A DNA stretch of 64,000 bases. Source: Chrysomallon squamiferum (taxonomy: Eukaryota; Animalia; Mollusca). Within the stretch, counting starts at the first letter, position 1; every line of letters starts with the position of its first letter. The position numbers and the translations under genes are program-made. Below, in pieces: positions 2,625 through 57,800 of this stretch. The notes under the pieces were generated by a model. The model searched no databases and was not told the DNA's origin. It worked only from the letters and a program-made list of their open reading frames with translations. The stretch lies in assembly GCA_012295275.1 (NCBI GenBank), contig CM022678.1:14508001-14572000 (forward strand). Reading direction: 5' to 3'.

Positions 2625-5600
2625 ATTTGTTGGGGTTTTTGTAATGCATTTTTATAAAAAAAATTGTAATAATAATACATTGATTCTTATATAATTCTTA
2701 TATAATTTGTATTGGCATTAGCATCATTTGCAATTATATATTTATATTTAATTAATGTCTAAAATTTACTTTTTGCTTTTGATTTCTATCATGTATTACC
2801 TTCCTTGCACCTGAACCAGTGGCCCGCTGTGAATGTGATGGGTGTCTCAACTGGAACTGTCTCAGACAACTCGCTGAAGATCGAGGTGTCTGGCAAAAGA
2901 TTGTGAACTTCCTGCTGACGCTCTGGACTGTACGGTTTTCCATCTGAAATATACTGCTTTACCACATCCATGTTACGTTTTTCTTCATCAGTAACGCTCC
3001 CGAGAGTACACTTGATGTCGTACATGTTGACATCACCGAAAAGCTTCAATCTTTTAATTTCATTTTGAGCATCAAATATTTCTTGTTCTGTGAAAACATA
3101 TCTCTTTACCAGTAACCAAGTCACAAAAATATCTATTTCATCTTGAAGCTGACTGTACTTTTCAATCTTTAATTTTTTTACTTCGTCTATGAAACGGAGC
3201 TGATTTATAACACATGCACATCCTTCTATATTCTTAGTGACGTCACTGTCGAAAAAGCGAACCGCTCGTTTTGAGGCGATGTCCTTTATATTCCTTTCCC
3301 ACTTAACGAAATCGTCTTTCATCAGCCGTTTTACCACAGTGATGTCTTGCATCGTTTGTCTAATAGCATCTCCATATCGCTTGCTATGTCTGATGTGTGT
3401 CTCACACCAAGGACATTGTTTTAACTGAATTTTGATGGGAAACTCGCTGGTCTCCATCAACTTGTCAAGAACAGAAACCTCAATAAGATGTCCACAGTCT
3501 TCTAATTCTATAAAGAGTGCATCAGGGCTAATTTCTTTACCAGTCAACTCACAGAGTTCATCTTGGCTGCATTTAATGCACAAATGAGGACATTTCTCGC
3601 CACACAGACCCAGGCACCTATGACCGCATTCCAATATTCGAGGACATTTTTTGTTGCATGGTAATCGGTTGCATAAATCACTGCAATTCTTAGTGCATTT
3701 CTTATCCTTACAAGTCCAGGTACATTTTTCAGGACATGGAGAACATGGTTCACTACATTTATTTTTGCAAGACTCATGACTGCATCTGTCACATGGCAAT
3801 TGACAAGGAGGACAGTGAGAACACAACTTTTGACATTTATGTCCACAAATCAGAATTCGGTTACATTTCTCTGTACATGCAACATGAAGACGACCTTGAA
3901 AACATTTATAACAGAGACCTTTGCAAACATGGCCACATTTCAAAACAGTGTTGCATTTTTCCGCACAAGGAACATTACCTTGCAGATAACAATGTACTTC
4001 AGCTTCATGGCCACATTTTCCTACCTGTATGACAGGATGCTTGCAGTCAAAGTTTTCCGGTCTAATCCAGCATGGCATAGTCTGTTTGTGATGACATAAT
4101 GGCATCACCCTTTCACACGGTATCTCACATTTATAGTTACTGTGTTGGGGATCAACCGGATGACATCGTTTTGCACAAACATGTCCACAGTTCAATTCGA
4201 ATGTGCAGGGTTTTAGGCAACCACCTTCTGGAGCCAAAGAAAAATCTTCTGCTTTTGATGCTTTTATTCCTGCATCCTGCGGATGGTTCTGACAGTATAG
4301 AAAAAGGGCATTCCCAAGCTGGCCTTCCGATTCCAAATAATCGACAATGTTTTCCCATAAGTCACTCTGTGTCCTCAACAGGTTAAAATTACCAATGACA
4401 AAAAGACCTTTTCGAGCTCGCGACAGAGCCACGCACACTCTGTTATCAATCTTGAGAAAACCAACATTTCCTTCCTCGTTACTGCGTACCAAAGATAGTA
4501 GAATAATGTCATTTTCTTCGCCTTGATAGTTGTCAATTGGTGTCACCCTCACTCCTTTAAATATATCGGCAGGCATATTTTGTTTCAGAAATGCTACCTG
4601 ACCCGAGTAGGCTGTCAGAATAGTTATTTCGTTTGCTTCGTAACCTTGTTTGATGAGATATAAGCAAAGTGCAATAATATATCGAGCTTCAAAAACGTTG
4701 AAATGACTCCAAAGTTCAATGTTCTTTTTTTCATTTGCAGAATGGTTAATGAAGAATACATTGCTGCACACACCTAGAATATTAGGATAATTTTCAACAG
4801 ATGCATCATCTCTAAGTCGAGGATAGATGAATTTCATAATTTTGGAAATAGAGGGTCGCATTCTGTGTTGTTTTTCAAGGCTGACACACTCCAGACCGTT
4901 GTTAACCATTCTTTCAAATAACGACAGCTCCAGATTATACTGTTTAGCGAGTAGGTAAACATTGGGGCTTGGTCGCAGCTGTTGGTGGTCACCAATCAGA
5001 ATCAAATGTTCGCATTCTGAACTCAGTGATGCTGTGACGTGTGCTTCCAGAACCTCTGCAGCTTCTTCTATAATGATAATTCTAGGTTTTAATTCTGATA
5101 AAATCTTTTGGTAACGAGCAGCCCCACTAGTAGTCATTCCAATTACTGAACATTTTTTCATTACAGCCTTATCAGTCTGCAGCATTGCGATTCGGTATTC
5201 TTCTCTAGCTTCAATGCATTGTTGCTGCACTTCAGCCATTTCATTTTCAAGATGATTGTGTAGCTGTTGCATCCAGTATCTATAAAGACGCCAACGATCC
5301 TTGATTGATAATGACAGTATATCAGACACAGCTCTTTCTTCTACTTCGGTCATGGCAGACTGACACTGAATATTAGCGAGAAATTCATCTTTACGTGACA
5401 TCCTATGGCAGCCAGCTGAAAGTATGTCCCTTTCATCTCTCTGTGGCAGTTTAATAAGTTCCTCAAAATCTTCTTCAACATCCAATTTTCTTTCTGCCTC
5501 TGCAATATCTGCTTCTCCATCCTCATCATAAGTCTGTTTGTCTTTGTCATTGCTTTTCTTTCCTGAATGTGAATGTTCGTAGCTTACAGTCGTATCGACA

Positions 5601-8548
5601 TTATCCTTATGTCTAGTGTCTTTTGGTTGACTGCTTTCAAAATAATTGGAAATTTGTAGCCAGTCTAATAAAGGGTCATTGACTGAATCGATTTCAGAAA
5701 GCTGTTTGTAGTGAGTCTGTGAAATAACAGGATTCAAAACAAACTTTTTGACGATCCCCTCTTTAATTAATTTCAGATGTTTTTGAATACGAAGCAAATT
5801 TGTCTGACAAAACAAATGATGATCTTTTTCTTCATGAGGAAATTTGAAACGTGTTCGCAATTCCCTAATTCCGTACTCTCTTACCTTGTCACTTTTACAC
5901 CTGCCTCCAACCCGTACCAAACTTCCACTGTGAAATGATAAAATTCCTTCGAGAAACTGATCGAGAGCATGATTGGTATAACAGAGAACCAGCATTGGCC
6001 TTGGCTTATTATGTTGCCAAATATCGCAGTTAAAAAGAAGAGTTTTAACAATCTTCAGCCCAACATACGTCTTGCCAGTTCCAGGTGGCCCCTGAATGAT
6101 GACAAACTCTTTTGTTAAAGCTTGCTGAAATGCTTTGAACTGAGCCACATCAAGATTTAGATATTCAGGCTGAGGCCAAAGGTCTAGATTCAAAATAGGC
6201 GAGCTGTTTTCAAGTATTTCACTCTCCATATCTGCACTAGTATCACTATCGTCTTCATCGTCGTCTTTGTCTTGGTCTGCTGTAAAGCTGTCACAATAAT
6301 CTACATCATCAAGAGAAGAAAAACCAGTCAAATCAATGGATTTAAACGGAGTTCTTTTGGGATGAACAATTTGTTTTGAATTATTTGCAATAGCATCAAA
6401 ATCATATTTCAAATAGGGTTTGTTTCGAAGATAACGTGGTGGTCTGATGTCCCTTTTACAGAATACAATGTATTCTTCAAATGGAAGCTGGCCTTTTCTG
6501 ATATTTTGAAGAGCAGAAAGTACATAACGATAAGCTTCGAAGTACGCTGTTGTTTCAATCATTACCATTGGTTTGCTTAAATCTATTGGTCTTTCTCCTA
6601 CGACATACTCAATAAAAATATCGACAGTAACATCTTCGTCTTCGTCTACTTGTTTTGGTCTAGAATCAACAGAGGCAAGTGAAAATGTTGCATAGTTATC
6701 GTTGGACAGACAGACAAGTGTGCCATATATTAATCGCTTTGTGTGTTCCCACTGGATTTTATTCATACCCGGTGTGTCAAACGTTACAGTATGCACGAAT
6801 CGGTCTTTACTGAAACCTGATCTCACCACTTTAACGTTATGGTATGTGCGAACAGTCAGTGGCTGTCTTGGATTTTGAAACGCAAACAAATAATCTCTTA
6901 CACCCTGGCGCAGCGGCTCAATGAAATCTTCTCTCAGCAGTCTGAACTGTACATCCAGATAATCGTCTAGATCTTGGTATCCACCTGTTTCCTTGATTTT
7001 ACGGAGGAAAGGTTTCGTTGTAGGATAAATATCATCGTATGTTGGCATTACTGAAATAGTTCTGAAGTCATTGGGGGGTGAGATATCAGCACTCTTAAGC
7101 ATTCTGTTTGATTTTATTCTATTATTTTCCATTTTCTTTAGAAGTGATGTCTTCGTTTCCTCTAGTTCGTTTATTTTAAACTGAGTACCTTCACTAAGTT
7201 CACTTCTCGTTTCAGCTAGACGATTAACACAACACTCAATATAAGAGGAAACACCACAGACTGTTGTGATGGCGTGTGGCAAACGCTGCGATAACTCTAA
7301 CAGAACGATGAGAATGTCGTCAATAAATTCATTTAGTTCTTTTTCAGAATTTTTACAAAGTTTGCTTTTCATCTTCGTGAGAACCGCTGGCACTGTAAAG
7401 TTAAGAAACAGAGACTTTTCTACATCCACTAGCAACTTCAACAACCTCTCAGGATGTCTACATGGACGACAAGCTTTTGAGAGCATTTTCATAACCAAGC
7501 AGACCTCGCTATCTGAAAGAGTTTCCCTGTTGAGAATTGCGTTAAAACCATTGTTTTCTTGACTCACTGTCAGCAGAATATAGTCTGAATCGTCTTCATC
7601 TTTCAGATCTTGGAGTTTTTCAATAGTTAGAAGATCAGTTTGAATTTTTAGATAACTTGTCGGTTCTTTAATTTCTTCTACAGCCCGTCTTTCGTTAGTT
7701 TTTGTTTTCGTTTTCTTATTTTCAACAGTCTGTTCATTTGGCCTCCTCCAAGAAATGTAATCAGCCAGAGTACTCTGTTTGTAAGTCGGTCTCATTTTCG
7801 GACGAGCGCCAGACGACGCCTTTCTTGTTGAGTCGTTTCCTTTTGCTACCTCTTTGGGAGCGAATTTTATTTCAGTGTTTTTAGATGGAAACTTAGACAC
7901 TGCGTTATGCTGTGAAGATTTTGAACTCTTTTTGGAAGTAATTGGATCTAACAGTGACGGAAAATCTTCTGTCAAACTGTTATTTAATCGAACTTTCCTT
8001 CTTTCTGATTCTGGAATGTTTGTTGTTGGCGAAGACTGTAACCTCCAGTTCAGCTGATCGCTCGAACGAGACTTTCTGTTCCATCGAGTTTCCAGCTTTG
8101 TGTTTCTTTGTTTTAGAACTGATACATCTTCCTTTTTATTTGATGACGATTTTTTGCATTCAGCTGCAGAAGTCAGAGATGGAAAATCTTCATTTCTTGT
8201 TTCATTTCGTGGGTGATTTTGTATGTTCAGTGTCCCCCATGATATTTGTTCAGAGTTTGTTCCCTTGGATTTACCAAATCTTCTAAATGAATGATGTTTT
8301 TCACTTGATACATCACATTTAGAGACAGCAGTCAAACTGGGGAATTCTGAATCGACCTGACAGACTGCCTCGCTCTCTTCTTCCTCTCTCTCTTTATCTG
8401 AATCGTCGTTTTCAGTTATTTCATTTTTATCAGACAACCAGTCGTCCGTGAGGCATTTTAACTTGTTGGTTTTGCCTGATAAGACACGATCCTCTGTTTT
8501 ATTACTGATGTCACAGACCCAGCTTTCTTCTTTACTCCACGCAGACAT
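2355..8548 (-). CDS. ZNFX1: NFX1-type zinc finger-containing protein 1-like SF1 (UPF1-like) RNA helicase, ~1945 aa; coding exons 8548-2800 and 2443-2355
   Basis: Long ORF with ZNFX1 hallmarks YLDVQFRLLREDF, KRLIYGTLVCLS and AYFEAYRYVL; Walker A QGPPGTGKT; motifs IIEEAAEV, LIGDHQQLRP, IDNYQGEE and VALSRA; NF-X1-type Cys/His repeats; RING-like LEDCGH...CPWC. Acceptor tattacag at 8561 precedes ATG 8548 (MSAWSKEE). Donor g|gtaata at 2800/2799 joins acceptor ttgcag|gt at 2443 in frame, giving ...HWFRCKEGHIYNDSKNDNSVTCPTCLDNLPKLSDLT* (stop 2357-2355). Confidence 0.95.
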
Positions 8549-9017
8549 TGTGGTGAGTATCTGTAATACTAAATGCATTTTATAATTAGGAAGCTGTTAT
8601 TACACTGAAGGAATATTGCTGATTTGAAGAAGGGTTTTTTTCACTCACTTTATCACAGTGTATTCAAAATATATTCCAAATGTTGTTTTATTTATTTGCA
8701 ACCTTAGACGATAATAATAACAGAGTGTGATAATACCCCACACACGCACACTTACACAAACGCGCGCGCGCACACACATATAATATTGCAATGGTTTTTC
8801 CAATTGATCATTTATTTTATTTATTTTTATTTTTATTTGTTTAACTGTTTAAGGAATCTCCTGAATAAAATCATGTCTCACTGATATATACTCATATGCT
8901 TGATATTGCCATTTTCTTTTAATTACAAACACTAGTATAGCTCAGCTTGTTAATTGACAGTTAATTGTTATGCACTTTGTTTACAAATTACAAATACAAC
9001 GTCAAATTTACTCTGAC

Positions 9018-9345: not shown

Positions 9346-10100
9346 CAACAACAACAACAACGGTATCAATAACAATAATAATAATAACTAGTAGTAGTCG
9401 TCGTCGTAGTAGTAGTAGTAGTAGTAGTAGCAGTAGTATTATAAAACGAAAGATTAAATATTTCTGTTAATTTGTAATTCTATAAAAATTATATGTAAAA
9501 GTACAGAAATTTTAAACTCTTTGTTACATGTTTAAAATTAAGAAATTATTTAAATAATTTTAACATTTTTAATATTAATGCCTGAAGAATACACTGACAC
9601 TAAATAATTAAACTGGTAGAAACCACTACAAGTAAAATAAACACTTGTCTTACCGTCCGACTGATTTATTAAAACTTTACATAAATAAATTAATCCCGAG
9701 CAGAAATATTAACAGTAAACTGAAACGAAAATGTCATTACAATTTATATTGAAATAGCACGACAAAATGGCCGAAATTAGAAGAGCTGAATCACCTAGTA
9801 GCAAAAGTAGACTAACTTACAAGCCCTCATAAACATCATGGATAAGAAAAAGTACTCTCTGGTTACATAGTTTCATTCTGCATAGTGAATTTGTAAACTA
9901 AAAACTCACCTAGATGTGTATTTGAAACATACTCAAAACGTACTCCATGTTTATTATCGTTTAGTCACTTCGTGAAACAAGTTTTCTAGGAACTGCTTGA
10001 CACATCCTACTTTCAGTTTGTTACTTACTGGATCAGATCGATGTTTGCATAACAACGCCATGATCAACGTAATGGCTGACGGTGCAAGTATGTGACCTTT
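9018..10100 (-). promoter_or_regulatory. Probable ZNFX1 5'UTR exon(s) and promoter, with STAT (GAS) and IRF-like motifs
   Basis: Minus-strand donor-like sites at ~9017 (aag|gtcaga), ~9653 (acg|gtaaga) and ~9908 (tag|gtgagt); local CpG enrichment; perfect GAS TTCTAGGAA at 9984-9992; GAAACGAAAA at 9722-9731. Confidence 0.35.
9309..9437. repeat. Compound (AAT)n/(AAC)n/(AGT)n microsatellite
   Basis: Direct reading. Confidence 0.9.
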
Positions 10101-10898
10101 AAACCCGACACGAACACAGGTTGTAATTGTATCAGTTTACAAAACATACATTTGTATCGCGAAATGGTCCGGATAGTTACCATTTGAGATTAATAGCAGA
10201 TTTATATATAGATCTGCATAATGTATATTCCTACTCGCCTCACCTGCCATGATATGCTAAAATTCACTGATAAATAATCGTCATTCTTTTTACATTAGTT
10301 AATCTTTATAAATAGCAACACATGCAAATGTTATTTTAACACTGTCTTTCTAATATTTACATTTTTCATTTTTTATCGAGAGCTTACTCCCAGGATCCTC
10401 TGCCCTTAACGTCGCCAGACCTCTGTCCTAATGTCAGTCGTACTCGTTAAATACAACAATGTACCAACGTCATCATATGAATGGAATTTCAAGGGGAAAC
10501 GTTCTTATAATCACCAATTTAGTTTTCTCTCTTTTTTTAATCACTATTTATTTATTTATTTTATTTTATTTTAATTTTTATTTTATTTTATTTTGTTTTA
10601 TTTGTTTATTTCTTTAATTACGTAGCTTATTTATTTAGTTTAGTTTAATTTAGTTTAGTTGTTTATTTCTTTAATTACTTACTTACGTATTTATTATTTA
10701 TTTATTTATTTTGTTGTTGTTGTTGACGGCTCTTTTTATTTTATTATTTTTTTAATTATTATCATTAATTTTTCATTCAGTTTTATATTTTATTTTCTTT
10801 GATGTATTCTTTTTTTTCTGTTTATATTGTTTGTTTGTTTTTGTTGTTTTTTATAGTGTTCTTTTTCTCTTACTCTTTTTTATTATTTTTGTTTTTTA

Positions 10899-30219: not shown

Positions 30220-31892
30220 TTATATTTCAACTTGGCGAAGTTTGTATCCTGCACTGGCTTCACTTGCCACACTTGACTGTGGTGATGGAGGCACACGATA
30301 TCCTGGAGCCTGCTCTGGTGGTCGATACTCCATCTGTGGTGCTGTAAGGAACGTCTGAGTTTGTTGTGGAGGTTTACTCAGTACATAGCCGCCATGCCCT
30401 GGAGGCCCTGCAGGACCTGGTGGTTTCCGAATCATGGTGTAGCTGAAAGAGAGAACATCATCTGGATACGGTTCTTCAGCAGGTCTCGTTTTCATCTGTT
30501 TCTGTCTGATTTCTTCAACACTTCGACAGAGCTGCAGTGTTTGCATCCAGATAAGCACAGCACCAACAATGCTGAGAATAGCTCCAATGCATGCAATGTA
30601 GAATGCCCAGTTAAGGACAAGTGAAGGATGTGCATTTATTACAAAATGGTGGTATGGTTCATCCAGGGGCATCAGATTCCATTCATTAGTCCCATCCAGA
30701 CCCAATGAACACAAAAGTAGCAATATTATTCCCAACACATTGCAAACACCTAAAATTGAAAGAAAAAATATAATAATAACAAATAAATAAATCTTGCTGA
30801 ATGAAATAATCACAAATTTATTTTATATTTAAAACAGTGTATCTTACAAATCCAGACCATTAAGAATGTCTTACTAGCAAGTTAATAATTTATAGCATGA
30901 AATTACTCATTTTTATTTTCATATATTTAATAATATTTAAATATAATCTGTAAATTACACATAATTTTACAAACACAATTAGAACTGTTTTTGATAAATT
31001 TCTTACTTTAAATTACCAAATTTATTAAACTTCAGACAACTAAATTAGATTGACAAAAATCAGACAAACCAAAAGCCAAGGTGAATCCAGACAGTGCCAT
31101 GCTTCCAGTCAATGAACCAAGTCGTCTGCCACCCAAAATTAATGCTCCAGCTGTACAGGCAAATATTCCAAAGAATCCCATTGCAAACATAACTTGCCCT
31201 GCCTTGAACATCCCTGAAACAGCAAACATAATTATGCATCCTTATTAGTGGAATATCCATTTAAGTTAATTGAATATTATATTATTTACGTATTTAAGGT
31301 ATAAAATCCCTGAAGTAAAAAAGAAAAATATTCCATCTTACAATAATCAAAATATAAAACATAAAGAAGTTAAGAAACTTAAACATTTATTAACTACTTT
31401 GTATATTTCCGCTATTCTTATGTTATTGTTTGTACATCTTAAGATATGTTAACATTATATTTACTTGTGAATAAAATGCTGATTAAAATTCTGCCGTCTG
31501 AACTTGTTAAAATTGAAACATGCTTGGTCTATTATAAATATTAGAATACATTTTGAAAAACACAGGGACGTAATTAAAACTAGTTTCTTACTTGGCACAA
31601 CAAACAAGTTCGAAGCGTTATCCATTGCCAGAAGACTTGTCATAATTGCAGGAATGCGACTGTTTAGCCCAGGTTTGTTTGGTTTGTATATGAAAAAGAT
31701 GCCAATGTCTATACTTTGCTGCATAGCAGTCTCTGTTCCAAATGTCCCATCTTCGAAGTCAAATTTAAGGATGAACCACCACGGCAACAATGAACAAACC
31801 ACATTAACTACAGTTGCAATGACAAGAATTATACTGGCGATAGCCAGAAGAGCCGACTGCGCGAAGTTTTCTAAAATCTGTCCAAAACCCAT
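30220..31892 (-). CDS. Claudin/PMP22-like four-TM protein B with Pro/Gln-rich cytoplasmic tail, 324 aa; exons 31892-31592, 31213-31070, 30749-30220
   Basis: Four hydrophobic segments; PWW...IGIF in loop 1; LNWAFYIA before TM4; GT-AG junctions, both phase 1; 975 nt total; ends RQVEI*. Confidence 0.85.
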
Positions 31893-32065
31893 TATGATTA
31901 CGAATTTATTCCATTTACTTCTGTTATTGCGATTTTTTCGTTATTTCGTTGTTTTAATGTTAGTAAACCAACTTATAAGTGTTCAAGTAGTAAATATTTG
32001 AAGTAATGATATTAAAATTCATGAAACACATCAAATACTTCAGTTTTGTTTAAACTACATCATGT

Positions 32066-33433: not shown

Positions 33434-34270
33434 TATTATTATTATTATTACTATTTAAACGATGTCATGTTTATTTTCTGATTGACCAGCAATAATTGTA
33501 TAACACAAACTTTATATACATATATTTTTATTATTATTATTTATTTACTTACTTATTTATTATTGTTGTTATTGCTGTTGTTTGTTTGTTTGTTTGATTG
33601 TTAGTTTAAGTGCATAAGTACTAATAGTGACACAAGCTTACATACAATACACACAAACACAGCCACACAAATATACATATATTCAGCACACTCAACATAT
33701 AACACACACACACACACGCACACACACACAGGTTTTGACAGTTTGTGACGTGAAGCCCTGCGGACGATGATCTGTAAATGAATTACGGTTTTCAAGGATA
33801 ATGACACAATATGTGCTGTATGGTTAAGCAGACTAACCCAGTGTTCGTCGACGGCATTGGCTGAGTAAGATTATCACCACCCAACATAATTCTGAGTAAT
33901 AACACCTTCCTAGACAACCAACAGAACTGTGTGCTGCCATTGGTCACCACAGGCTTCCGAATGTTTGCAGCTCTTCACCAGAAGTTGTCCGTTAACGACA
34001 TTGGAAAGCTAAAAAATTCTGTATTACAGGGATTTTAAAAACTTAATAAAAACTCGTTACATGGATTTCTTACAAATGTGTAATTCTGTCTGGACAAATA
34101 TTTGTTATTAATCATCAAAACTTTTCAAGGTACTTTTAAGAAATGTTTGAATCTGTGTCTGATGTAACACATTCTAAACGATTTGCTTTTTCAAAGGCAG
34201 TCTTTCCAGATATTCTGTGTTGTTCAAGGTATTAATAATATAAAAATAGTTTTTTTAAATTGTTCTAAAT

Positions 34271-35020
34271 ATGTCGTCTTTAACCCCTTTTGGGTGGTCG
34301 ACGGGTCGCATGAATTTGCATTATAAATCTGTTTACCCGACAACTGACAGAGGAATGCAAGCGACGCTACACAAAAATCTAACCAAACGCCTTTACCCAA
34401 AGCCTCGCCTCGAAGACCCTTCTGTTAATTATGTTGCAGGAAGCAAAATTCTCAAAAGAAATAGAAGACCGTCTAACTTGCCGTATTGCTACAATCCTTC
34501 AGTGTCTGCTGAAATCACCGAATTGTACGGCGATATATCACCGCGAGCCAAGAACACGTCACGAAGGCATTTACCCAAACTCCCTAGATCGTACACTGCA
34601 ATGGATGTGCATAACATCACCAAAAGAGTCACCACCTTTGATCCCGCCCGCATTGCAGAGTCAAAAGGATATCGTCTGCCTTCCCCACAACCGCGAGTCC
34701 GGCGAATCGCCAAGCTTGATAAAAAGTATACGCAAGAACAAATTGTCGGCGTTGTGAGTCGCTTGTCCGCGTACGATCCAGTCAAACACCCTGCTGAATC
34801 AAAGGGAACTCATTCTGATGACGATGGTTTGACGCAATACAGATATACGTCATCACTTCCCACTCCTAGAGGGATGTCCGCGTCTACATACAAAACAAAC
34901 CAGACGATTCCATCAACTTTCAGTCGCGTTAATTCAGAACGTATTCATCAAATTGTTGAAAGATTAAGTGCATTTGACAAAAGCAAATGGCCGCCAGAAT
35001 CGAAAGAACGCAAAAACTAA
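34271..35020 (+). CDS. Intronless basic uncharacterised protein, 249 aa, with three internal [IV]xxR[LV][ST]x[FY]D...ESK repeats
   Basis: 750-nt ORF forming a sharp GC/CpG-rich island in AT-rich DNA; repeats conserved at the protein level but diverged in DNA. Confidence 0.8.
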   Translation: MSSLTPFGWSTGRMNLHYKSVYPTTDRGMQATLHKNLTKRLYPKPRLEDPSVNYVAGSKILKRNRRPSNLPYCYNPSVSAEITELYGDISPRAKNTSRRHLPKLPRSYTAMDVHNITKRVTTFDPARIAESKGYRLPSPQPRVRRIAKLDKKYTQEQIVGVVSRLSAYDPVKHPAESKGTHSDDDGLTQYRYTSSLPTPRGMSASTYKTNQTIPSTFSRVNSERIHQIVERLSAFDKSKWPPESKERKN

Positions 35021-44159: not shown

Positions 44160-45221
44160 TAATAATAATATCAGCAACCAATGTCATTTCGCGGAACATG
44201 TAGTTATTATTTGTTTCTTATTTTATCCAAGAGCTGACTCTTCTGGCAAAACCCGATAGCAGACGACAAAAATGTTTTACCTTAACTATCAAAATATAGC
44301 GTATAGTTGCAATTTTGCTGCAAGAAAAAAATTGTTTTGTGGCCTCTCTATTCAAGAAGATGAACTGAATAGTACAATATATCTTATGTCATCTTCTTTC
44401 TCTCTTTCTCCATAACTGCTAGTGAGTGGCCACTGATGCTTTATGAACTTCATCAAAAGAACAGTATATATATGGTAAGTCATTTGTCTATGTGAATGCC
44501 CATCTAAAGAACACCATGACAGTGATTCACAGAACCGTGAAACGTGTTGCCTCACGCCTGAAATGCAAAACCTAATAACATTAAAATTATCGAGGTGTCA
44601 TGGAAGAAAAAACAAAAGTAAAAAAAAGAGAGAAATTCCTCTTTAGTTTTATGATCAAACTAGATAACATATTTAATTAAAAAAAAAAAAAAAAAAAAAA
44701 AATAATAATAAAAAAAAGACCCTCATTTTCTTTTATTAATAAATTATATTTTCCCAATAAAACTGAAGCATTTGAAGAAATAAAAAAGAAATAATTATAA
44801 TAATAGTAATAATAATAATAATAACAATAATAAAGAAATGTTGTCATCTGATACACAGATTACGTCTGGCAATGGAAACAGCGCCCTCTTTCTGCAGCAC
44901 GACACGTATTCATTTATCTACGTCACAGCGATGTCCTAATTTATGGTCAGGAAATAACTGAACTGTAACAAAGGAAAGTGACAAAATAAAATTGATTTGG
45001 TGAATTTGCAAAACCACAATGTTCTAATTATTATCTTATTTAGTAAATCAAATGGGCACCACCACGTCTATGGCCTTGTTTAATGACCAAACCTTAATAC
45101 TTCAAATAAACAAATGAAATAATACATAAATACAAATATTTTAAAATAATTTTTAGACAAATAAATAAAACTGAAGGAAGAAGATTTTTCACTTAGTTAT
45201 TTAATTATTTCTTACGTTTTT

Positions 45222-45252
<31 letters not shown>

Positions 45253-45374
45253 TATCTGGGCCAAAATGAAACGAGTGCTTTGTTTCGATCATAGGTTCTC
45301 GTAGAGGACAAATGCATTATCAGCTGATGACTACAGAGAACCATTTTTTATTTTTTTCATTTTAAATATTTCAT

Positions 45375-45413
<39 letters not shown>

Positions 45414-45615
45414 GAAAAACTAAAATGAGAAATTTTTATTTAAAAAAAAATAATAATAAAAACACAACAACCAGCATTTGTGTTGGAAGAATCAATAATA
45501 TGTTTTTGACGTCTAGATGTTGTAATGGTGTATGTTTATTTGTTCAAAGAATATTACGCGTAGAGTTTAAAACGTCACTCTGAAGTACTCCCCCAGTTTT
45601 TGTATGGTTCTCGTG

Positions 45616-46050
45616 AAATGTGAATTTTATAGTTGAACTGCAGCAGAATTTGCAAACTGAAATACCGAGTTGACGTTACGTGCCCAGCTGCACAACAAAA
45701 GACTTCGCTCAGACGCTGCTGTATTTCGATCTTTCCTGTTCGCCGTAGCTGGCAAGTCATCTGGAATGCTGTACACGTCACAAGCTTGAAAAGCCCTTCT
45801 CGGCCTGTACTGTATCGTCCTCGAGGTACTTCTAATTACTCCAGTACGGGCTGCACCATTTAGCTCCACAGTAACCCTCAGAGAAAAGAATAAGACAACC
45901 CACTTCTATCGGCACTTTTCGTAACGTGTCCGAAAATAGCATAGCCTGACGCAGCGACGAGCCACTCGTGATCGTCAGGGTTAGGGAAGACAACACATGG
46001 TCTTGGAAAACCTAGAGCAGACCAACTGTGCTGTTCATATACAGAGAGAG
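45616..46050 (-). ncRNA. TERC: Candidate telomerase RNA (TR): template/pseudoknot core plus H/ACA domain, ~430-445 nt
   Basis: Template CCCUAACCCU at 45986-45977; 14-bp helix ending 3 nt 5' of it; pseudoknot topology with a UUCUUUUCUC loop; closing helix CUGUAU/AUACAG; H-box candidates ACAGGA and ACAGCA; long hairpin ending directly before ACA-UUU. G-U pairs favour the minus strand. A canonical P6.1 was not found. Confidence 0.55.
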
Positions 46051-46059
46051 CAAATCGAA

Positions 46060-46230
46060 CGGTAAGCTAAATTTAACGGCAAGTCGTATAAAACAGACTT
46101 TGTTGTTAGTAACTGTGATTATGTTTAAAACTCTGGTGTGATCTTATTACTTAACATTTGTGTTAGGATTTTATGGTCTTTGACAACAGACTACGCTATG
46201 GATCTGAAGTGGTAAGGAAACATGGCGGAC
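46060..46230. promoter_or_regulatory. Probable bidirectional promoter between the structured ncRNA (-) and the zinc-finger gene (+)
   Basis: TATAAAA at 46087-46093; plus-strand donors gtaagc (46062) and gtaagg (46212); YY1-type AACATGGCGG at 46219-46228; CpG-rich. Confidence 0.5.
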
Positions 46231-46506
46231 CTACTCGTCCTGCAAAGTCATAGTGACTCGTCTGTGTAGAGTTTTTGTTGTTTCAATGTATAATTTCTAT
46301 TTACATGCATTTTAAAAAAGATTTTTTTTTACTGAACTTGCCAGTTATATTAACCTAATTTAAAATATAATAGTTCAGTTTCTAAAATATTTTATGAATC
46401 TGAATCACAACAAATTATTTATATTAAACAAAAGCATAAACTGTTTTCCTGAATCCTGTTTCCTGTCATTTTGATTGATGCAATATATCCTTTTTATTTA
46501 GCTTAC

Positions 46507-46508
<2 letters not shown>

Positions 46509-46552
<44 letters not shown>
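46509..46552. repeat. (CA)n microsatellite
   Basis: Direct reading; another (CA)n tract lies at ~47468-47506. Confidence 0.95.
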
Positions 46553-46555
<3 letters not shown>

Positions 46556-47462
46556 ATATTTTATTTGGCATTTGATATTTCTAATAAACAATAAGAAAAG
46601 AGTTAGATTAACTAATGTCATAAAGATTAAAAGTAATTTTAAAATTTTATTAGCTGCTGTAGCAGAGAAAAAAACAGTCTTATCATCACAAGTAAATAAA
46701 TATATAAATAATAATAATAATACTGTTGAAAGCAATTCTAAATTCAAACCTAACGTAAAAGTCTACATTTTGGTCATCAGATCACAATCGTATAGATTAT
46801 CTGACTAACCAGAAAACCTATAATCTATTTTTAAAATCTCTACAAAAAGATGCCATCATTTACAAAACTTAATAAATTAAAAAAAGTAAATAAATAATTT
46901 TAAAATCTCAGTAATTATGCTATCTGTGAACATTACTGAAACTATATTAATGTATTTTAATGTTTTAATTTTTTAAACTAAAGTTTCAAAAAAAGAAAAT
47001 GGATTTTCAAATCAAGGTCACAATTTTATATTTTAAAATACTTGTCAATCAGAGAATTTTTTTGTTAGTTTTGATATTAATTATGTATTTATTGTTTTCA
47101 GGCATATATAATTTTTGTTATCAAGTTTATATAAATAGCTGGTATTTCTGTCATAAAATTATAAATATCTATTTTTAAAATAAATATTAAATTTCTGTAT
47201 CATGATATTTTACAATACCACTGTTATTTTGTGGTTGTTATTTTTATATTTTTATCCTGTATTGTCATATTGTTTGCCAGCTTTTTTGTATTGATTATTT
47301 TGTATATGTTTCTGAAAAATGAATAAAACAGAATTGATGTCAAGGATAAGTATTATTTGGGGGTAAATTTTCCTAAGTTGTTACAACAGTAACAGTTCTG
47401 AAGCAAGAGTATTCTGGGTTAGTTATGTAGTATGCAGAAAGCATAATGATAATTGCAAAATA

Positions 47463-47508
<46 letters not shown>

Positions 47509-48855
47509 ATACATCACATTGCATTGTTACGATTAACTAATACTTATTAATATTTACTTGAATATATGTTATTGCAAGTGTCTATCAATTTCTTTAAGAT
47601 ACAAGATATTTTTTTGTTGTTTGAGTGAATATTATAGTTTGGTCATGTGGTTATCTTAGGTATTTTGCCATTTTGAATATTTGACATTAATACAAATGAA
47701 TTCTTGGATTTTCTATATTTCTATATTCTATACTTTCCACTGTTTTCATCATACAAGATTTTTCTTTATTTCTTTTTTCTTTCTTTTTTATCTCTGAAGA
47801 AAGCAAATTTTATTTATATTAAAAGATACTGAAAGGCAAAGTTAGAAATATTTTGTTAAGAAATTTAAACTTGAAACTTAACTACAGATGTAAGTGATGC
47901 AACTTCTAGAGAAAAGAGACAGCTAACAGGAGTGGTGATTTGACAGATGCTTACAAAGTTTTTATGATAATTACCATCATTCTTATACATTCTTTCATTG
48001 AGCTGGTGTTGATGCCACATAAAAAATCTGAATCTATATATTTGACTCAGCCAAATATTTTGGCCAGTGATAAGAGAGAAGTATGTCTGTGAAAGTAACA
48101 CATTTATAACTGACAATAAAAATTCCTGAAAACTAATGTGAGTGAAAGACTATAATTATTGTGTTTGCAGTAGTGATGACAACGTTTTGTTAGACTTCTG
48201 TATATCATGCAGTAAGGGGAGAGGGGCTTTGCAAAAATGATGACATTCTTTTAAAAATTCTTTTCAGTCAGTGTAATAATTTTTCTAAACTCACTTAACT
48301 TCAAACACTGGTTTTCTTCTTTAGACATAAAAGTAATCAAGATTAACATTTGTTTTTTGTTTGTCTATGCTGTATGGTGTCTGATGAGAACTACTTAAGA
48401 TATTTATATATAAACTAAACAAACACATGTTTTAATAATAGAATGCTGTGAAGAAAATACATAACCAGTAATGGATTAATAGAGTATGTGAGGTTATCTA
48501 CTGAACTGATACCAAATATCCACATTATGTGAACTAAGAGGTGAACTAATAATTATCAGTTGTGCAAGAAAATATAGTTACATTTTCCACAAAAAGATAC
48601 AAAGAAACTGTATTCATGATGAGTATATCAGTAAATAATTTTACTTGCCGAAAACATTATTAGTTATTATTATTAGTGATGTGATGGTGATTGTGGTTAT
48701 ACAGTGATATTCTTCTTGTTATTCCTTATGTAAGACAAACTATTGTCTTAACCAGCATCCATTATTTTACATAATCAAAAAACCAAAATAAAAACCAATA
48801 ATAATTATTTTAATACACTGATTTTCTTTTACAGAGTGATGTTTTAAATAAAGAA

Positions 48856-51800
48856 ATGGATTTTAACCAGTCATCTAGTTCTGCGATGGATGACAGGTCT
48901 TCCACACCAGTTTTAGACGAGCGTTCAGCCACACCACTGCTTGATGAGCCATATCTGTATGAAAGTAATCCACTGGTACCATCTCTTGATGAACAGATGC
49001 TGGAAGATGCAGAAATTATTTGTGGTCAGAATGAGACTGACAGACAAACAATGAAGAATCTGCATCAGTTCAGGATGATGATGATGATGATGCTTTGGAC
49101 ATTTCTCAGAGAACTGAACAGATACAGGACCATAATCTTACTGATGACAGTAAGCAAAATGTTAACCAAAACAACCAAGAAACAACCGCAAAATGTCCTC
49201 AGATGATACAAGATTCTTCAGAAAGAAACAGATTAGAAGATTGTGTGGATTCCTCAGAGACATCACAGAGTTCTCAAAACCAGTCAAAAAGCATGTTGAA
49301 CAGTGAAACCAAAGCAGACAATATATCTGTCACAAGTAAAACCTCTTCTAGTACTAACCAAATAGCTGAAGGTTCATCCAGTTTATTTTCTAATGACAAA
49401 TTCAGTACACCAGCATCACTTGAGAAAAAACTGAAGTGTTCTGAGTGTTGTTTCACAACCACAGATGACAAAATGTTTAAGAATCACATTTGCCTTAAAA
49501 CTAGCAGATGTCATGATGCTCACAAAGAGAAGCAGATTTCTATAACATTCTCAGAAAATCATTATCACTGTAATGAATGTGATTTCAAAGCTAAAGGTCA
49601 TGCATTTGAAGAACATCTCATGTGTCATCTCATTGTCAAACCCTATCAGTGTATTTACTGTCCAGAGGCTTTTGTAAACCGTCGTGAAATGGGTCAGCAT
49701 GTTAGTGTTAAACACACTGGAGAAAAGATGAGTTGTGCTTTAAAAGCTCTAAGCAGAGCCAGGAAACTGATGTGTGAAGCAAAAAAAACCAATTCATATG
49801 TGTTTTTTGCCACAGTTGCTGGTAAAGTGCCTCTCCAGATTGATCCCGAGAAATCTGAAGTGTCAAAACCAAAACAAGGCCATTCAGAAACAACCCACTG
49901 TTCTGCAGTTAAACCTGAGAAAACTGAACAAAAAGGAAAGTTAACAGAGAGAAATGTCATTATAACAAGCAGTTCACATAACAGAAAGGAGAAAACTGGA
50001 AATGAAGTATCAGACAACACAGATAACTTGACCCTTACACATCACATAAACAAAGACAAACCAGACCAGGCAGATGTTGACAAAGACATCAATGGAAAGG
50101 AAGTAACAAAGACTTCAGTAAAGAAAGTCACAAACGAAAAAAATGTTGAAATACATTCAGCAGTTAATGAAAGTAGCACCAAAGACCTGGTAAATGAAGA
50201 ACAGAACTCTAGTCTCCAAACTAGTTCACAGTCTAGTTCACTCTCTGGCTCATTTAATGGTGTTAAAGATGTAGATATGTCTGACAACACAGCAAGTAAT
50301 ACGACCTTTATCAACAATAAAGAAAGTATTTGTGATTCAGAAAACCATGCAGCAATTGATGAAAGTGACCCAGTAAATGAAGAACAGAAATGTAGTGCAC
50401 AGTCCAGTTCAGGTGTAAAGGATACAGATTTGTCTGATAACTTAGCCGCTGACACAATCATTGCCAATAATAAAGAATATATTTTTGATTCTGACAAAGC
50501 AGCTTTAGAAACAGAGTATGTGTTAGTACCTAGAAATTCAGAAACCTCGGATGAACATGAAGATGATTCAGTAAGCATCAAAACTGACACATCAGTCAGT
50601 GAAATGCTGCAGAGAGAAGATTTACAAACAAGTCAGTCAGAATATAATGAAGAAAATGAAATTGATTCCATGAAAGAGGTGCAAACTACACAGGATGACA
50701 AAACAGAGGCAATAAATGACCAAGCAACTGTTACTGGTGGTGGTGAAATAGATAAAGATGATAAACTAGATAAGATTATTGATGATGCTGAGCAAAGCTT
50801 GTCTCAATCACAGGAATTTGTACAAAGTATATCTGAACAGGAAATGGAACAAACAAGGTCAGAAACACAACCCACTAAGGAAGATGGACAAAGTTTATCT
50901 GAGGAGCCAAATTTGTCTGAACAACTCAGCCAGGAAATTGAAGAAAATTTGTCTGAACATACCAGTCAGGAAATTGAAGAAAATTTGTCTGAACATACCA
51001 GTCAGGAAATTGAAGAAAATTTGTCTGAACATACCAGTCAGGAAATTGAAGAAAATTTGTCAGAATATACCAGTCAGGAAATTGAAGGAAGTTTGTCTGA
51101 AAAACCCTGTCAGGAAATTGAACAAACTTTGACTGAACATACCAGTCAGGAAGGTGGACAAAGTTTAGCAGAACATCCCACTCAGGAAGATGAAGAAGGT
51201 TTGTCTGAGCAAGAAAGTCGGGAAGAAGCTAATGAAATGGAAGTGACAGAATCAGAAAACATCAGAACTGAAGAAATGATGGAGTCAGTCAGTGAGAGTA
51301 ACACATCTGAAATGACTGTTGTAGAAGACTCAAAACCTGATTCTCCTGCAGGAGATGAAGAACAAGAACTAAAAATTGTTGATTCTTTTTCTTTAGATGC
51401 AGATGATAATTCATTTCAAACAGAATTGATTAGCAATAGAGTCACTGAAGAAGAAAAGCTTATTGATGACAGATCCAGTAAAGAGAGTTCAAAATATTCT
51501 GCTGTTGCAGGAAGTGGCAGTAGCAGTAATAGTGATGATGATGCCAATGTGGAGTCTTCAACTGTCAGGGAGAAGAAAACTCTTATGTCAGGTCTAATTC
51601 TTAAAAAACCTACAATTCTAGAGAGAGTGTTAACTTCCCCACAAGGGTCACCTCAACTGACACCACCAAACACATCAGTGAAAACCCAGATCACTGCTAT
51701 CAGAAACCCAAACTTCTATATCTGTGGACTTGGATGTTCCTTTAGTTGCTTAAACTCTGTGGAATTTAGGGACCACTTAATGCTAGATCATGCAGGTGAA

Positions 51801-54800
51801 ACAGGTTTTCCTTGTTTCTACTGTGGCTGGTCATCATCATTAGAAGATGGCCTCTTAAAACATATGATAAGCCATGCACACACATACAACAAAGCAGCAC
51901 CTCTGTACTGCTGTGGTGTTGGTAAGTGCAAGTTTGGAACAAACCTCCTGGCAGACTACAAGAATCACATGGAAATAATGCATGCAGGCTGTACCTCATA
52001 CAAGTGTAAAGAATGTGACTACATGGCTGACAATGTCCAAACTCTAGTGCAGCATTTTGACAACAATTTTCTGCATGTAGTCAACTGCCCACACTGCACA
52101 TGTAAAGGGAGTGATCGAGGGGTGATTCTGAGACACATTGCTCAGTTCCATCCAGGAAAGGCAAAAATGGTTCAGGTGGCCAAACAGATGATATGCAAGG
52201 AACGCAAACAAAACAATTACCATGAAAAGCAGCAAACCAGAATTATTACGTCAAACATGAAAACTGAAATCCTTTCGGTCAATATTTCTGTTGTGAACAA
52301 TGACAGCAACCTTCAGACTAAACAGACCGACAGCATGGAAAAACACATTGAATCACCTAAGTGTGATCATTGTACTTTTGTTGCTAGGGATGCTCGTCGC
52401 CTGCAGAGTCACAAGAATTGTCACGGCTTGCCTCAGATTAAGAGACATCGCTTTCGCTGCATTTACTGCCCTCAGGGATTTGACGCAGCAACAAAGTTTA
52501 AAAGTCACATTGTTTGTCATCCAGGACTGATAAAATACTGGATTTACTGTTGCAAATACTGTGAATTTGACACCAACCAACGACATGTGATGTTAAAACA
52601 TGTGAAAAACAGAGATGATGGTCACATGCACAGTGGCAGTGATGAAGACATGTTTACTATAGTTGAGCAGATTATGGAAAGTCGAGTCTTAGAATGTGAA
52701 CACTGTAACTTCCAGACAAGACACAAGCTTCATCTTCAGATTCACTGTGAGCAACAGCACAAAGTGGTGAAGGCTGCAGCTCAGTCATCCACTGACTTAG
52801 CACCTCTCAATTCTTCTCTAAGCTTCAAAACACCAAGTCTAGTGTCTGCATACAGCAAGCAGACAAGAGGATCAGGTGGTCAGGTTCAGGAAAACCGTCT
52901 GAAAAAGTTTAAGTGTCCTCACTGCCAGTATCTTGTTCCTAAAGCTGCTGACTTGAAGCAGCACATGAAAAGACATGATTATTTGGGGAAAATATCCTTG
53001 AATATATTCCGTTGTAAATACTGCAGTTCCTCTTCTACAGCCAGAGATCTTGTTTTTGAGCACATCCGAGAGAAACATGCAGGAAAAGCATTACAGCTGG
53101 TGAGAAAGACTGTTAACATTGACACAAGTGGGACTGATAACACATTTTCTGAAACATCAGTTGCTGAAGCACCACTGTCATCAAATGATTACAACCCACA
53201 CAACTCAGCAATTAATCCTGTAATGCCGATCTCATCTTCAAACCCAGTGATAGACAGATTCCATTGTGAAACTTGTTCTTTCTCAACACCTAGTAGAGAC
53301 GTATTTGACAACCACCTTCTGCTGCACAACACTAAGGGAGGAGTTCAAGGGATGGCTTCACCTGATCCTGATGATGATTCAGATGAAGGAGATACTTCAG
53401 AAATTGATACAAAACCTTCTGCTGATAAACAGATAGAAGACGAATTTTCAGAAGATATGGAGAAAATCATTCAAGTGATTATTGTTCCTGACTGTGTAGC
53501 TGCTGACACCCTCACAGCACCAGTACGATGCCCACAGTGTTATTTTGCATCAGGATATAGGTCAGCTTTTGTATCTCATGTCAAATCTCTCCATCCTTTG
53601 GTAATGGTGATAATTAGAAATAATGGAGGTGTCCAGGAGGTTTCAGAATCTGGCAACATAGGCAAACCGTTTCACTTGCCTGAAGATCTCAATCCAGAAA
53701 TATTAATTATTCCAGAAAAACAAGTATTTTCTCAGTCTGTCAGTTGTCCTAAGTGTCCAAACTTTGTGACCTACTTCAGACGTAATCTTGTTCTCCACAT
53801 CCAGAAACATCACTCTGAAGTAACTGCCATGGGATACAGATCATGGAATGGCTGGAGAGGTGAGAATGTGGCAGGTACTTCACAAGGTCAGACACTGAAA
53901 TCATTGCAAGATGAGTCGTGTATTGTGGGATCTGGTAATCTCGATGAGAAGATAGGAATGCTGTATGAAAATTATGGAGCAAAGCAGAAATGTTTAATCT
54001 GTACATTAGAGAAATCCAAAAAGTACTTCATGCATATTCATCTGCTACGACATCTGGATATATGTTTGTGGAAGTGTGCTTACTGTGCATACAAAGGATT
54101 AGAAAAACACAAAATCAAGCAGCACATCAAGGAACACCATCCTGACCAGCCTGCCACTGTCACCTACCTGAATGTTGATATAGACAATAAAGTTGCAGAG
54201 TTTGTCAAACAGCTAGGCTTGAATAGAAATCAGACATTTCTTTCCAGCACTGAAAAAGAATCTTTCCCTGAAATTACCGTAGCATCTTCGCCTAAACTAT
54301 TATGTATCAGCCCAGACAGCAAAATGAAACAGGCTGGACCATTAGGTACTGCAGACTTGGATGAAAAGATTCGATGTCTTTATGAAACTGTATATAATAA
54401 AAGCAGATGTATACTTTGTAGCTGTGAGTTCACACGCAAGTTTGCAATACACAGGCATATTGTAACCAACCACCTGAAAATAGCACTGATAGGCTGTGGT
54501 TATTGCTCATTCACTGGAGTGGACAAACACTACATTACAGATCATATTCTGATGCAGCACCCAAGTAGTCCTATAAAAGTCATTGCACTTGATATAAACA
54601 TTCCACAAAAAGTGACTGAGCTGTTGTCATCGCCAAATCCTGGAAAGCGAGGCAGTGATAATGGTGGAGATTTAGACACTTCTGAATCCAAATCTCAGCA
54701 AGATGCTGATTCCACACCAAAAGCTTATTTCCTTGGAAAAGATTTGTTGGATCAAAAGCTGCAGTGTCTGTACAGAAAACAGCCAGATGGCTTCAAGTGC

Positions 54801-57800
54801 AAGGTATGTGAGTGGAAGTTTCCAAGGAAGTATGCTTGTCATAGACACATATTTCTGAAACATCTCAAACTCAATTTATTTGGTTGTGCTTATTGCCACG
54901 CAAAGGCAGTGGAGAGATACCTGATAATATCACACATCAAGGAAGCTCATCCTGGCAGCCCTCCACATGCTCAGATACTCAAAGTTGACATTGATAAGAA
55001 GATTTCAGAGTTTCTGGCCGAGAGGTCACAGGTTGCTGAGACACTAAGTAACATAAAACAGAACACTGATTCACACTCTGCTTCTGCAGATGAATTCTTA
55101 CCAGAGCAGAAACCTGATCTCGATGAGATCAATGGATCAGGTTCTGGAATGGTTGTGGCTCTGTTTGGCAGAAAGAGAAAGGACAGTGATACAGTTTTCC
55201 CATCTGTACTCAGTCCTGTTTCTCCAAAGAAACTGAAAACAACATGTAGGATGACTGATGTGACAACTAATATTAAAGTAATCTGTGTTGCTGAAGGGTC
55301 TCTGAAGAAATATGTGTGTGAAGTTTGTAGGTTTACATCGCTTCACCGGTCTAATGTGTACCGCCATGTCCTCAGAGTTCACGAGAAGTACAGAGAACAG
55401 GAGTGTCAGTACTGTGGCTACAAGACTCTCAGTGTGGTCCTCATGCAGCAACACATCGACATAGAACATGAATCAGAGGCCTTGTCAAGTAAAACATCTG
55501 AAGACAGCAAAGAAACAATTACTGTAAAGAAAGAACCAAATGAAGAAACCAAGTCGAGTGAAGATGAAGAGGAAGCCAAAGAAGTGAAAGATGAACACGT
55601 TTCTACTGAAGCTGACACATCTGTACAACACACAATAAAAACATACTGCTGTGCTTACTGCGACTACGAGACACAAACATCAGAAGACATTCTTAAACAC
55701 ACCAAACAGTTACACTGTCAGACAAAGGAGATCATTAAACCATCAACATCATCAGCCACAACACCAGCATCTTCTTCATCATCCAGCCCATGTTACAGCA
55801 AGCCAGTGTTAAAAACTAATGTGAAAAAAGGGATGTTTAGTGCTAATCAGTATCTGAGCTGTGGATATTGTTCATACAAATCTGCTTCTTTACCAGACAT
55901 CAAGTCTCACGCCAAGTCAGAACATCGCATTGAGACTGCTCTCATTGTGTCCCCGTATGCTTGGAAATACATCTGTAAAATCTGTAGTCTGAAAAACAGT
56001 GCTGCTGGGAAGATGAAAAATCATATCAACCGCCACATTGAATACCGCCCCTACACCTGTGGGTCCTGTGGAACCTCCTACTGCTCTTCAGATGAGTTGA
56101 GGAAACACATAAAAAACTATCAGCATGCTGATGAAATTCTCTACATCAAGAATGAAAAGAAAGAGAAGAAAGTAAGCCAGCTGATGGCAGACAGTCGGCG
56201 ATGTGCTGAGATGATCAACCTGGGGACACCATTTAATTTTGACTGTGATAAACAAGATGAAGAAAATACTACTAAAAAACATACAAGTCCAAAACGAATG
56301 TATAACAAGTCTCCTGTTAAGAAAATAACAAGTACATGGAAAACTGAGGTACTGGGAAACAGTGTCAAATTTAAGTTTGTTAAGAAAAAATCATCTTCTG
56401 GACAAAAAACGAAGTTCAGATATGCTCAGAATTGTCCATTTGCTAAGAGAGTACCTGTACGAGTAAGTGCTGATAAAAACACTACTTTGATGAAGAAGGA
56501 TTGTTACAGCTGCTGTAGATGTAACTTCACCACTGCAGTAAACATTGAGGAGGTTAAAAAGCACCATGAAGAAGTGCACACGGGTGAGGAGTTTCTGTGG
56601 CAGGACAGCAGGTTACAGGTCAAGTGTACAGAGTCAGGTAGAGTGGTCAGATGTCCGAGTCAGATGAAAATGCCACCAGTAGATGAACAGTTCACTCACA
56701 AACAGTTGAGTGGGAAGAGCACCAAATTCTACTGCATCCGCTGCGAGTTCTCCTGCTGGGTTCTCCAGGCCATCAAGTCTCATCTGAGAATGCACCAGCC
56801 TCGACGCTTTCTCTGCCCATACTGCAACATGAGATACCACAAACGGTAAACATTTTAAATTACAAAATCACCATATTAAATTACCTTCTTCATATTTGCT
56901 GGCTGTTAGTGTTGCTTTAGATCCTAATAATAAACTTTTCAGTTAGTAATTATTAAAAGGCTTTAATAATAAATGTCCTTTTAAAATCTCATAAAAATAT
57001 TGTTAGAATAGAATATATTCTTAATAATATTGTATCAGATGAAAATCACTTTTATTTTGAAAACGAAACTTTTCTTCTGTATCACTCTTTATCAGTAGTT
57101 AGTTGAAGAAAAAGACTGATATAGTGTTGTATTTAAAATGAGGTTTGATTTTAAACATTTCAGAGACAATGTAGACAAACATTTGGCCTCTATTCACCCT
57201 CACTTGCCAGTGTGGGTTGTACACATTGAGGAGACTGAGGACACTGTCTACATTGACAGCAAAAGTGAGGAAGAGGACATGGATGAATCAACAACAGAAG
57301 AGAAACCAGCTGTAGCAAAAACCAAAAAGAAGAAGCAAAAATCAAAACTGCTGGGACCGAAAACCAAACGACACCAGCGACTAATGGCTGAATATAAAGA
57401 ACTGACATCAAAAGGGCAACCACGTTAGTGATTAGTGATTTAATTTTTTAAAGAAAACTGAACATTTCACTAAACTAGAACAATAATAACATCTCTGATA
57501 CTTACTATTGAATTACATTATTTTAGGTGATTGTCTTTTATTCAGATAATTAGTTCTTGTAATGTGAGTGTTTAGATGTTTTGTTTTTTCCTTTAAACAT
57601 TTAATTGAATTTTCTTTAAAATTCTTTTTTTTAAAACAATATTTTTAAAAGAATTGTCCTTTTTTTTTTCAGTTCCTCTCCTGTTTATTTAAAAATATGA
57701 AGTACTATCCCAGTAATGTAATTTGATTTTTAACAATACATATATATATCCCTCTTAAAGTGACCCTGTCAGCATTAGGCAAACTATTAACATTTGTTGA

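Follow-up and report, generated by a model that had tools for sequence, protein, structure and literature searches.

Telomerase RNAs of the box H/ACA type have been described in protostomes, including 21 molluscs, and the RNA of the snail Pomacea diffusa (408 nt) has been validated (PMC8480181). These RNAs use the helix P1.1 as template boundary element, lack P6.1, terminate in an H/ACA end and carry between P1 and box H an eCR4/5 region with no defining sequence (PMC8480181). Echinoderm telomerase RNAs, which belong to a different phylum and are comparable by features, similarly set the template boundary by an adjacent P1.1 and have eCR4/5 in place of CR4/5, as the candidate described here may do (PMC4712671). 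Chromosome ends composed of TTAGGG have been reported in the gastropod Turbo cornutus (PMC13575190).

The window, i.e. the whole stretch of 64,000 nucleotides of Chrysomallon squamiferum DNA that was analysed, contains on its minus strand a candidate for such an RNA, named in an original prediction as the telomerase RNA (TR) of this organism. All 17 extracted segments of that prediction carry the letters it assigned to them at the positions it gave. The elements of the candidate, listed from its 5' end, are as follows.

45616..46050, minus strand: candidate telomerase RNA, about 435 nt, proposed from motifs and the chance test, its strand deduced from the motifs
46039..46044, minus strand: putative P1 5' strand, CUGUAU (sequence, duplex energy)
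45990..46034, minus strand: P1.1-like template-boundary helix, 8 + 6 bp, stopping 3 nt short of the template
45977..45986, minus strand: putative template CCCUAACCCU, followed by GACG, unique in the window
45904..45976, minus strand: long linker from template to P2b, with two possible hairpins (45979-45945 and 45939-45906)
45895..45903, minus strand: putative P2b 5' strand, continuing into the UUGUCUU motif (45898-45892)
45885..45894, minus strand: putative J2b/3 loop, U-rich by sequence
45870..45884, minus strand: putative P3 5' strand, forming 12 pairs interrupted by two bulges
45855..45869, minus strand: non-canonical spacer of 15 nt separating the 5' strand of P3 from the 3' strand of P2b (9 nt with an extended P2b)
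45846..45854, minus strand: putative P2b 3' strand with the consensus CAG, the consensus taken from published rows
45819..45830, minus strand: putative P3 3' strand
45810..45815, minus strand: putative P1 3' strand, AUACAG, 3 nt downstream of P3
45742..45804, minus strand: P4-closed stem, candidate eCR4/5, without P6.1
45734..45739, minus strand: candidate box H, ACAGGA, 2 nt past P4 (alternative ACAGCA, 45722-45717)
45622..45706, minus strand: candidate H/ACA-domain 3' hairpin, its base held weakly by 3 bp
45616..45621, minus strand: ACA box and the 3 nt that follow it up to the predicted 3' end (from sequence; an RNA contig, X6 record 3, begins at 45616, and no loose end is listed there)

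Comparison by eye with the published TR rows revealed the same order of putative elements as in mollusc TRs: P1, P1.1, template plus GAC, UUGUCUU, CAG, P3 followed by P1, a P6.1-less stem, box H, a hairpin and ACA plus 3 nt (PMC8480181). GAC after the template is shared with 7 of the 20 mollusc rows compared, UUGUCUU with Haliotis discus, an H box of the ACAG.A type after P4 with the Conus, Littorina, Rapana and Elysia cornigera rows, and the terminal ACAUUU with Haliotis laevigata and three annelids, while P3 starts purine-rich like that of mollusc TRs (PMC8480181). The length of 435 nt is near that of validated TRs of 408 and 436 nt and slightly above the mollusc spans of Table S1 (at most 411 nt) (PMC8480181). 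The missing P6.1, which had been entered as a caveat against the candidate, is expected in protostomes (PMC8480181). The candidate nevertheless departs from the protostome TRs of the same source in several respects: its linker from template to UUGUCUU spans 78 nt with two hairpins versus about 30 nt in Haliotis, the distance from UCUU to CAG is 38 nt versus 13 nt in H. discus, P3 is devoid of the UUU/AAA-type end, the H/ACA domain is longer, and the overlap with a plus-strand spliced exon is the candidate's own (PMC8480181).

The putative template CCCUAACCCU is the sole match of at least 8 nt to the telomere complement on both strands of the 64 kb; its length lies within the 1.5 to 2 repeat copies looked for in a template, and comparable 10-mers are expected by chance about 0.013-0.019 times per window. 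The P1.1-like helix lies upstream of the template, as sought, and is locally stable (z -2.19, with equal stability in 6 of 200 shuffles), although a second helix competes with it when the full length is folded. Following the template, the first of the two linker hairpins pairs the last 3 template nucleotides, and six template bases are left unpaired in the free ensemble. It had also been cautioned that AGGGUUA in the P3 strand could sequester the template together with this hairpin; the first part of the caveat is weak, as the P3 strand of Haliotis laevigata likewise contains AGGGUU (PMC8480181). One or two hairpins between template and P2a are likewise found in those cnidarian and basal metazoan TRs that possess P2.1, as in the candidate, and some of these RNAs also carry template-complementary bases directly downstream of the template (PMC8480181). 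Such RNAs, however, retain CR4/5 with P6.1, and P2.1 is reported as lost in protostomes (PMC8480181). The possible post-template hairpins of the candidate resemble the cnidarian P2.1 in position only.

An H-type P2b/P3 pseudoknot with a U-rich loop and closed by P1 can be drawn, with isolated duplexes predicted at -6.0 (P1), -13.1 (P2b), -8.5 (P3, or -11.5 if all 12 pairs form) and -8.4 kcal/mol (P4), and 487 of 245,310 random flanks give the motif and pseudoknot too. The test for a canonical junction, with a spacer of at most 2 nt, gave a negative result, the P3 5' strand ending in ACU at a distance of 15 nt from P2b. In all 29 of the 29 protostome rows the P3 5' strand ends in UUU, UUC or CUU and abuts P2b, whereas the candidate shows neither (PMC8480181). 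Because of this failed junction test, the candidate was classed as a likely variant and not as a canonical member of the protostome TRs. Alternative canonical pseudoknots with a spacer of at most 2 nt numbered 15 among those listed and were all weak, and a possible P2a, pairing the region 45938-45930 with 45844-45837, reached just -4.0.

The probability of such a combination arising by chance was estimated by keeping the template fixed between 245,310 random Markov flanks of island composition. The motif together with P2b/P3 appeared in 487 of these, a boundary helix of at least 8 bp in addition in 54, P1 as well in 6, and GAC/AAC on top of these in none (0 of 245,310). The descriptor ranges had been widened after the candidate was seen, which makes this chance figure optimistic, and the canonical version of the descriptor fails. 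Eight-base templates are expected 0.7-0.85 times per window, which, combined with 6/245,310, gives about 2e-5 joint matches per window; for an illustrative genome of 0.5 Gb this amounts to about 0.15 chance loci, or to about 0.005 if GAC/AAC is added (195/6000).

Thermodynamic folding, modelled with neither pseudoknots nor bound proteins, gives the TR reading little support. The whole candidate folds no better than its shuffles (z +0.50 on the minus strand, +0.20 on the plus strand), and the local minus-strand values are -0.1 for the pseudoknot region, +0.4 for the P4-closed stem, +0.5 for the 3' hairpin and +1.6 for the H/ACA domain. Among 10 segments the only minus-strand outliers are P1.1 (z -2.2) and the first linker hairpin (z -2.0), and the plus strand behaves alike; the earlier argument that G-U pairs mark the minus strand as the functional one therefore finds no statistical backing. 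The constrained TR model reaches -77.6 kcal/mol, to which P3 would add about -11.5, versus -123.1 kcal/mol for the free fold. In the free ensemble the predicted pair probability is 0.99 for P2b and 0.0 for P1, P3, P4 and the 3' hairpin, and in the full fold a rival 12-bp helix (probability 0.84) disrupts P1.1 and P1.

RNA cover of the locus was assessed from 11 listed runs, 9 of which contain the stretch; four of them (X6 to X9) were compared, and all contigs are unstranded. In the RNA runs X6 and X8, which stem from one study, position 46061 is spliced to 48835 with GT..AG borders on the plus strand, resulting in the following arrangement.

45616..46061, plus strand: RNA-covered stretch up to the splice donor of zinc-finger exon 1 (joint in X6 and X8, donor at 46062), the mRNA presumably starting somewhere inside
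46062..48834, plus strand: intron 1, 2773 nt, from the contig splice joint
48835..56849, plus strand: second exon of the giant C2H2 zinc-finger gene, with 48856 as the position of the first long-frame ATG and with gastropod relatives

Accordingly, the candidate does not lie head-to-head with the zinc-finger gene, as originally proposed; by the spliced contigs it overlaps the plus-strand exon 1 in antisense. A contig of run X7, which is labelled "DNA?" and has almost no intron cover, ends at 46061 as well, and a contig of X9 joins 46045 to the acceptor 48835. The latter contig (depth 5.6) is devoid of the 16 bases 46046-46061 before exon 2; either the assembly is at fault here or an allele carries a deletion immediately beyond P1.

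Record 3 of X6 spans 45616-46060 and continues into exon 2. Its first base coincides exactly with the 3' end that had been predicted at 45616 before the RNA data were viewed, in one of the four runs; the other three stop at 45705, 45738 and 45928. With ACA at 10 of the 501 positions here, a contig end at ACA+3 has a probability of about 0.02 by chance. The flank 44670-45605 has zero depth in all four runs, and the missing cover below 45616 in the three low-depth runs was not counted as evidence. Intron 1 has next to no depth in X6 and a single short contig (46071-46304) in X8. Carry-over of DNA is argued against by this nearly complete lack of cover in the flank and the intron. The unstranded assembler may have merged two transcripts, one of the minus strand that ends at 45616 and a plus-strand mRNA that starts inside it. 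We infer that the mRNA start would then lie within the RNA gene, since such a merger requires the two to share at least one assembly word (31 letters). A single exon of 446 nt accounts for the cover equally well, but not for the exact end at 45616. Variant letters are not listed in 45616-46060 in any of the four runs, versus 6 substitutions in 48835-50500, numbers too few for significance. The contig 46071-46304 of X8 is unspliced and of low depth; it contains a second donor-like site at 46212, of which no use was seen, and, near 46219-46228, a putative YY1-like motif. The segment is possibly an alternative first exon or a shared promoter.

With 47% GC and 22 CpG, the candidate stretch forms an island rich in both, in a window mostly of 20-42% GC. 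With regard to a MITE or another dispersed repeat, it is single-copy within the 64-kb window and not among the repeat families listed for it. A search with all 4227 Rfam models at the gathering threshold gave 0 matches in the window, and in 45300-46400 there were 3 weak matches, all to C/D snoRNAs (E 0.2-9.4) and none to telomerase; Rfam is not known to contain an invertebrate TR model. A generic TR pattern hit 12 loci in viral contigs, which were regarded as noise, and the pattern was judged too loose.

The designation as the TR of the organism thus stands in part: the mollusc motif order, the low joint chance and the contig end at 45616 speak for it, and the non-canonical pseudoknot junction and exon 1 on the other strand limit its strength. 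On balance, we consider it probable that the minus strand of 45616-46050 encodes a divergent protostome box H/ACA TR, while the plus strand contributes to the zinc-finger mRNA through the splice at 46061. The main competing explanation, which we hold to be unlikely, is that the stretch is only a CpG-rich promoter with a 446-nt first exon (5' UTR) and that its TR-like parts arose by chance. A role as nothing but the 5' UTR of the plus-strand gene had been named in advance as grounds for giving up the prediction, and half of this was found, the DNA being used in a spliced first exon. The contigs spliced to exon 2 would suffice for the RNA cover, the folding z values are near zero on both strands, the candidate pseudoknot is non-canonical, and an equally strong second island of high GC and CpG content is located at about 34300-34900 of the window. 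Such an explanation, however, needs two coincidences, namely the joint motifs (6/245,310) and a contig that happens to end at ACA+3 (about 0.02), and its exon would contain 3 upstream ATGs. Still less probable is a decayed or secondary TR copy, or an unrelated H/ACA RNA, retained as zinc-finger promoter and first exon with the working TR elsewhere: it would fit an intact template and outer motifs beside a junction that departs from 29/29 protostome rows (PMC8480181) and would still account for the ACA+3 end, but without selection the template, the boundary helix, the 12-pair P3 and P1 would hardly all have stayed intact.

If the minus strand indeed encodes a TR, RNA polymerase II would start near 46050, judging from known animal TRs (PMC8480181, PMC4712671). 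Binding of H/ACA proteins to the 3' hairpin would halt trimming 3 nt past ACA, at 45616, and TERT would contact the P4-closed stem as well as the half that contains template and pseudoknot. A chromosome end in AGGG could then pair with the last four bases of the template, opening the first linker hairpin, and TTAGGG would be copied as far as the 3-nt linker before P1.1, which would serve as the stop. Transcription of the zinc-finger mRNA, on the opposite strand, would begin within the RNA gene, so that the TR gene and the zinc-finger gene would overlap at their 5' ends, with one CpG-rich promoter zone common to both.

Such double use of the DNA may, as a speculation, explain the insertions of the candidate. 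More tentatively, as a possibility that we would not favour, the opposite strand of the TR gene also serves as promoter and first exon of the protein-coding gene, giving an mRNA antisense to template and pseudoknot that might restrain telomerase through pairing or through interference with transcription; the TR itself would then work with a rebuilt junction and regained P2.1-like hairpins. The TR of Ustilago maydis also shares DNA with a protein-coding gene; it is, however, processed from the mRNA's own strand, whereas the candidate would lie on the strand opposite exon 1 (PMC9564094). A full-text literature search, with most subscription journals outside its coverage, found, among the papers listed, no report of a TR overlapping a spliced first exon in antisense, no published TR of this species, no telomerase paper on Gigantopelta aegis and no mollusc TR paper newer than PMC8480181. 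Mollusc TRs being already known, another one is modest news. If confirmed, a working TR that breaks the junction kept in 29/29 protostome rows would test how much triple helix telomerase needs, its divergent junction would account for the possible failure of model-based searches to detect RNAs of this kind, and the sense-antisense overlap of TR and first exon would provide a testable way to regulate telomerase.

For the zinc-finger protein, a search with residues 120-300 of the ORF gave 8 relatives among 65 candidates. The three named ones all come from gastropods and point to a gastropod host: Gigantopelta aegis (59%), Haliotis cracherodii (61%, with 60% of the query covered) and Babylonia areolata (48%). 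The fetched zinc-finger-like loci showed no resemblance to the candidate RNA (best blastn E 0.44). Alignment to metagenomes and prokaryote genomes matched 9 of 104 and 1 of 49 candidate stretches, respectively, at 29-45% identity, none of them orthologues; a C2H2 zinc-finger-like match of 32% identity was located at 10001-10342 of a bacterial MAG chromosome (L022) labelled Kistimonas. At 49043-49044 the contigs of X6 and X8 have 7 extra bases relative to the window, and the window frame from the ATG at 48856 stops after 81 aa, with a 2602-aa ORF in another frame; owing to this 7-base difference and the early stop, the window is taken to contain either an error of assembly or an allele with a shifted frame. 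The zinc-finger ORF also contains, at 50837-51232, a 36-nt tandem repeat coding for 12-residue acidic repeats.

Elsewhere in the window, a ZNFX1-type helicase is encoded at 2789-8596 on the minus strand in a single uninterrupted frame of 1935 aa. Two minus-strand ORFs with hydrophobic stretches at 30220-31940 are possibly exons of one membrane protein gene, perhaps claudin-like by their look. An ORF of about 250 aa at 34259-35020 (plus strand), situated in a CpG island, belongs to no Pfam family and has 4 relatives, at 81% and 31-33% identity.
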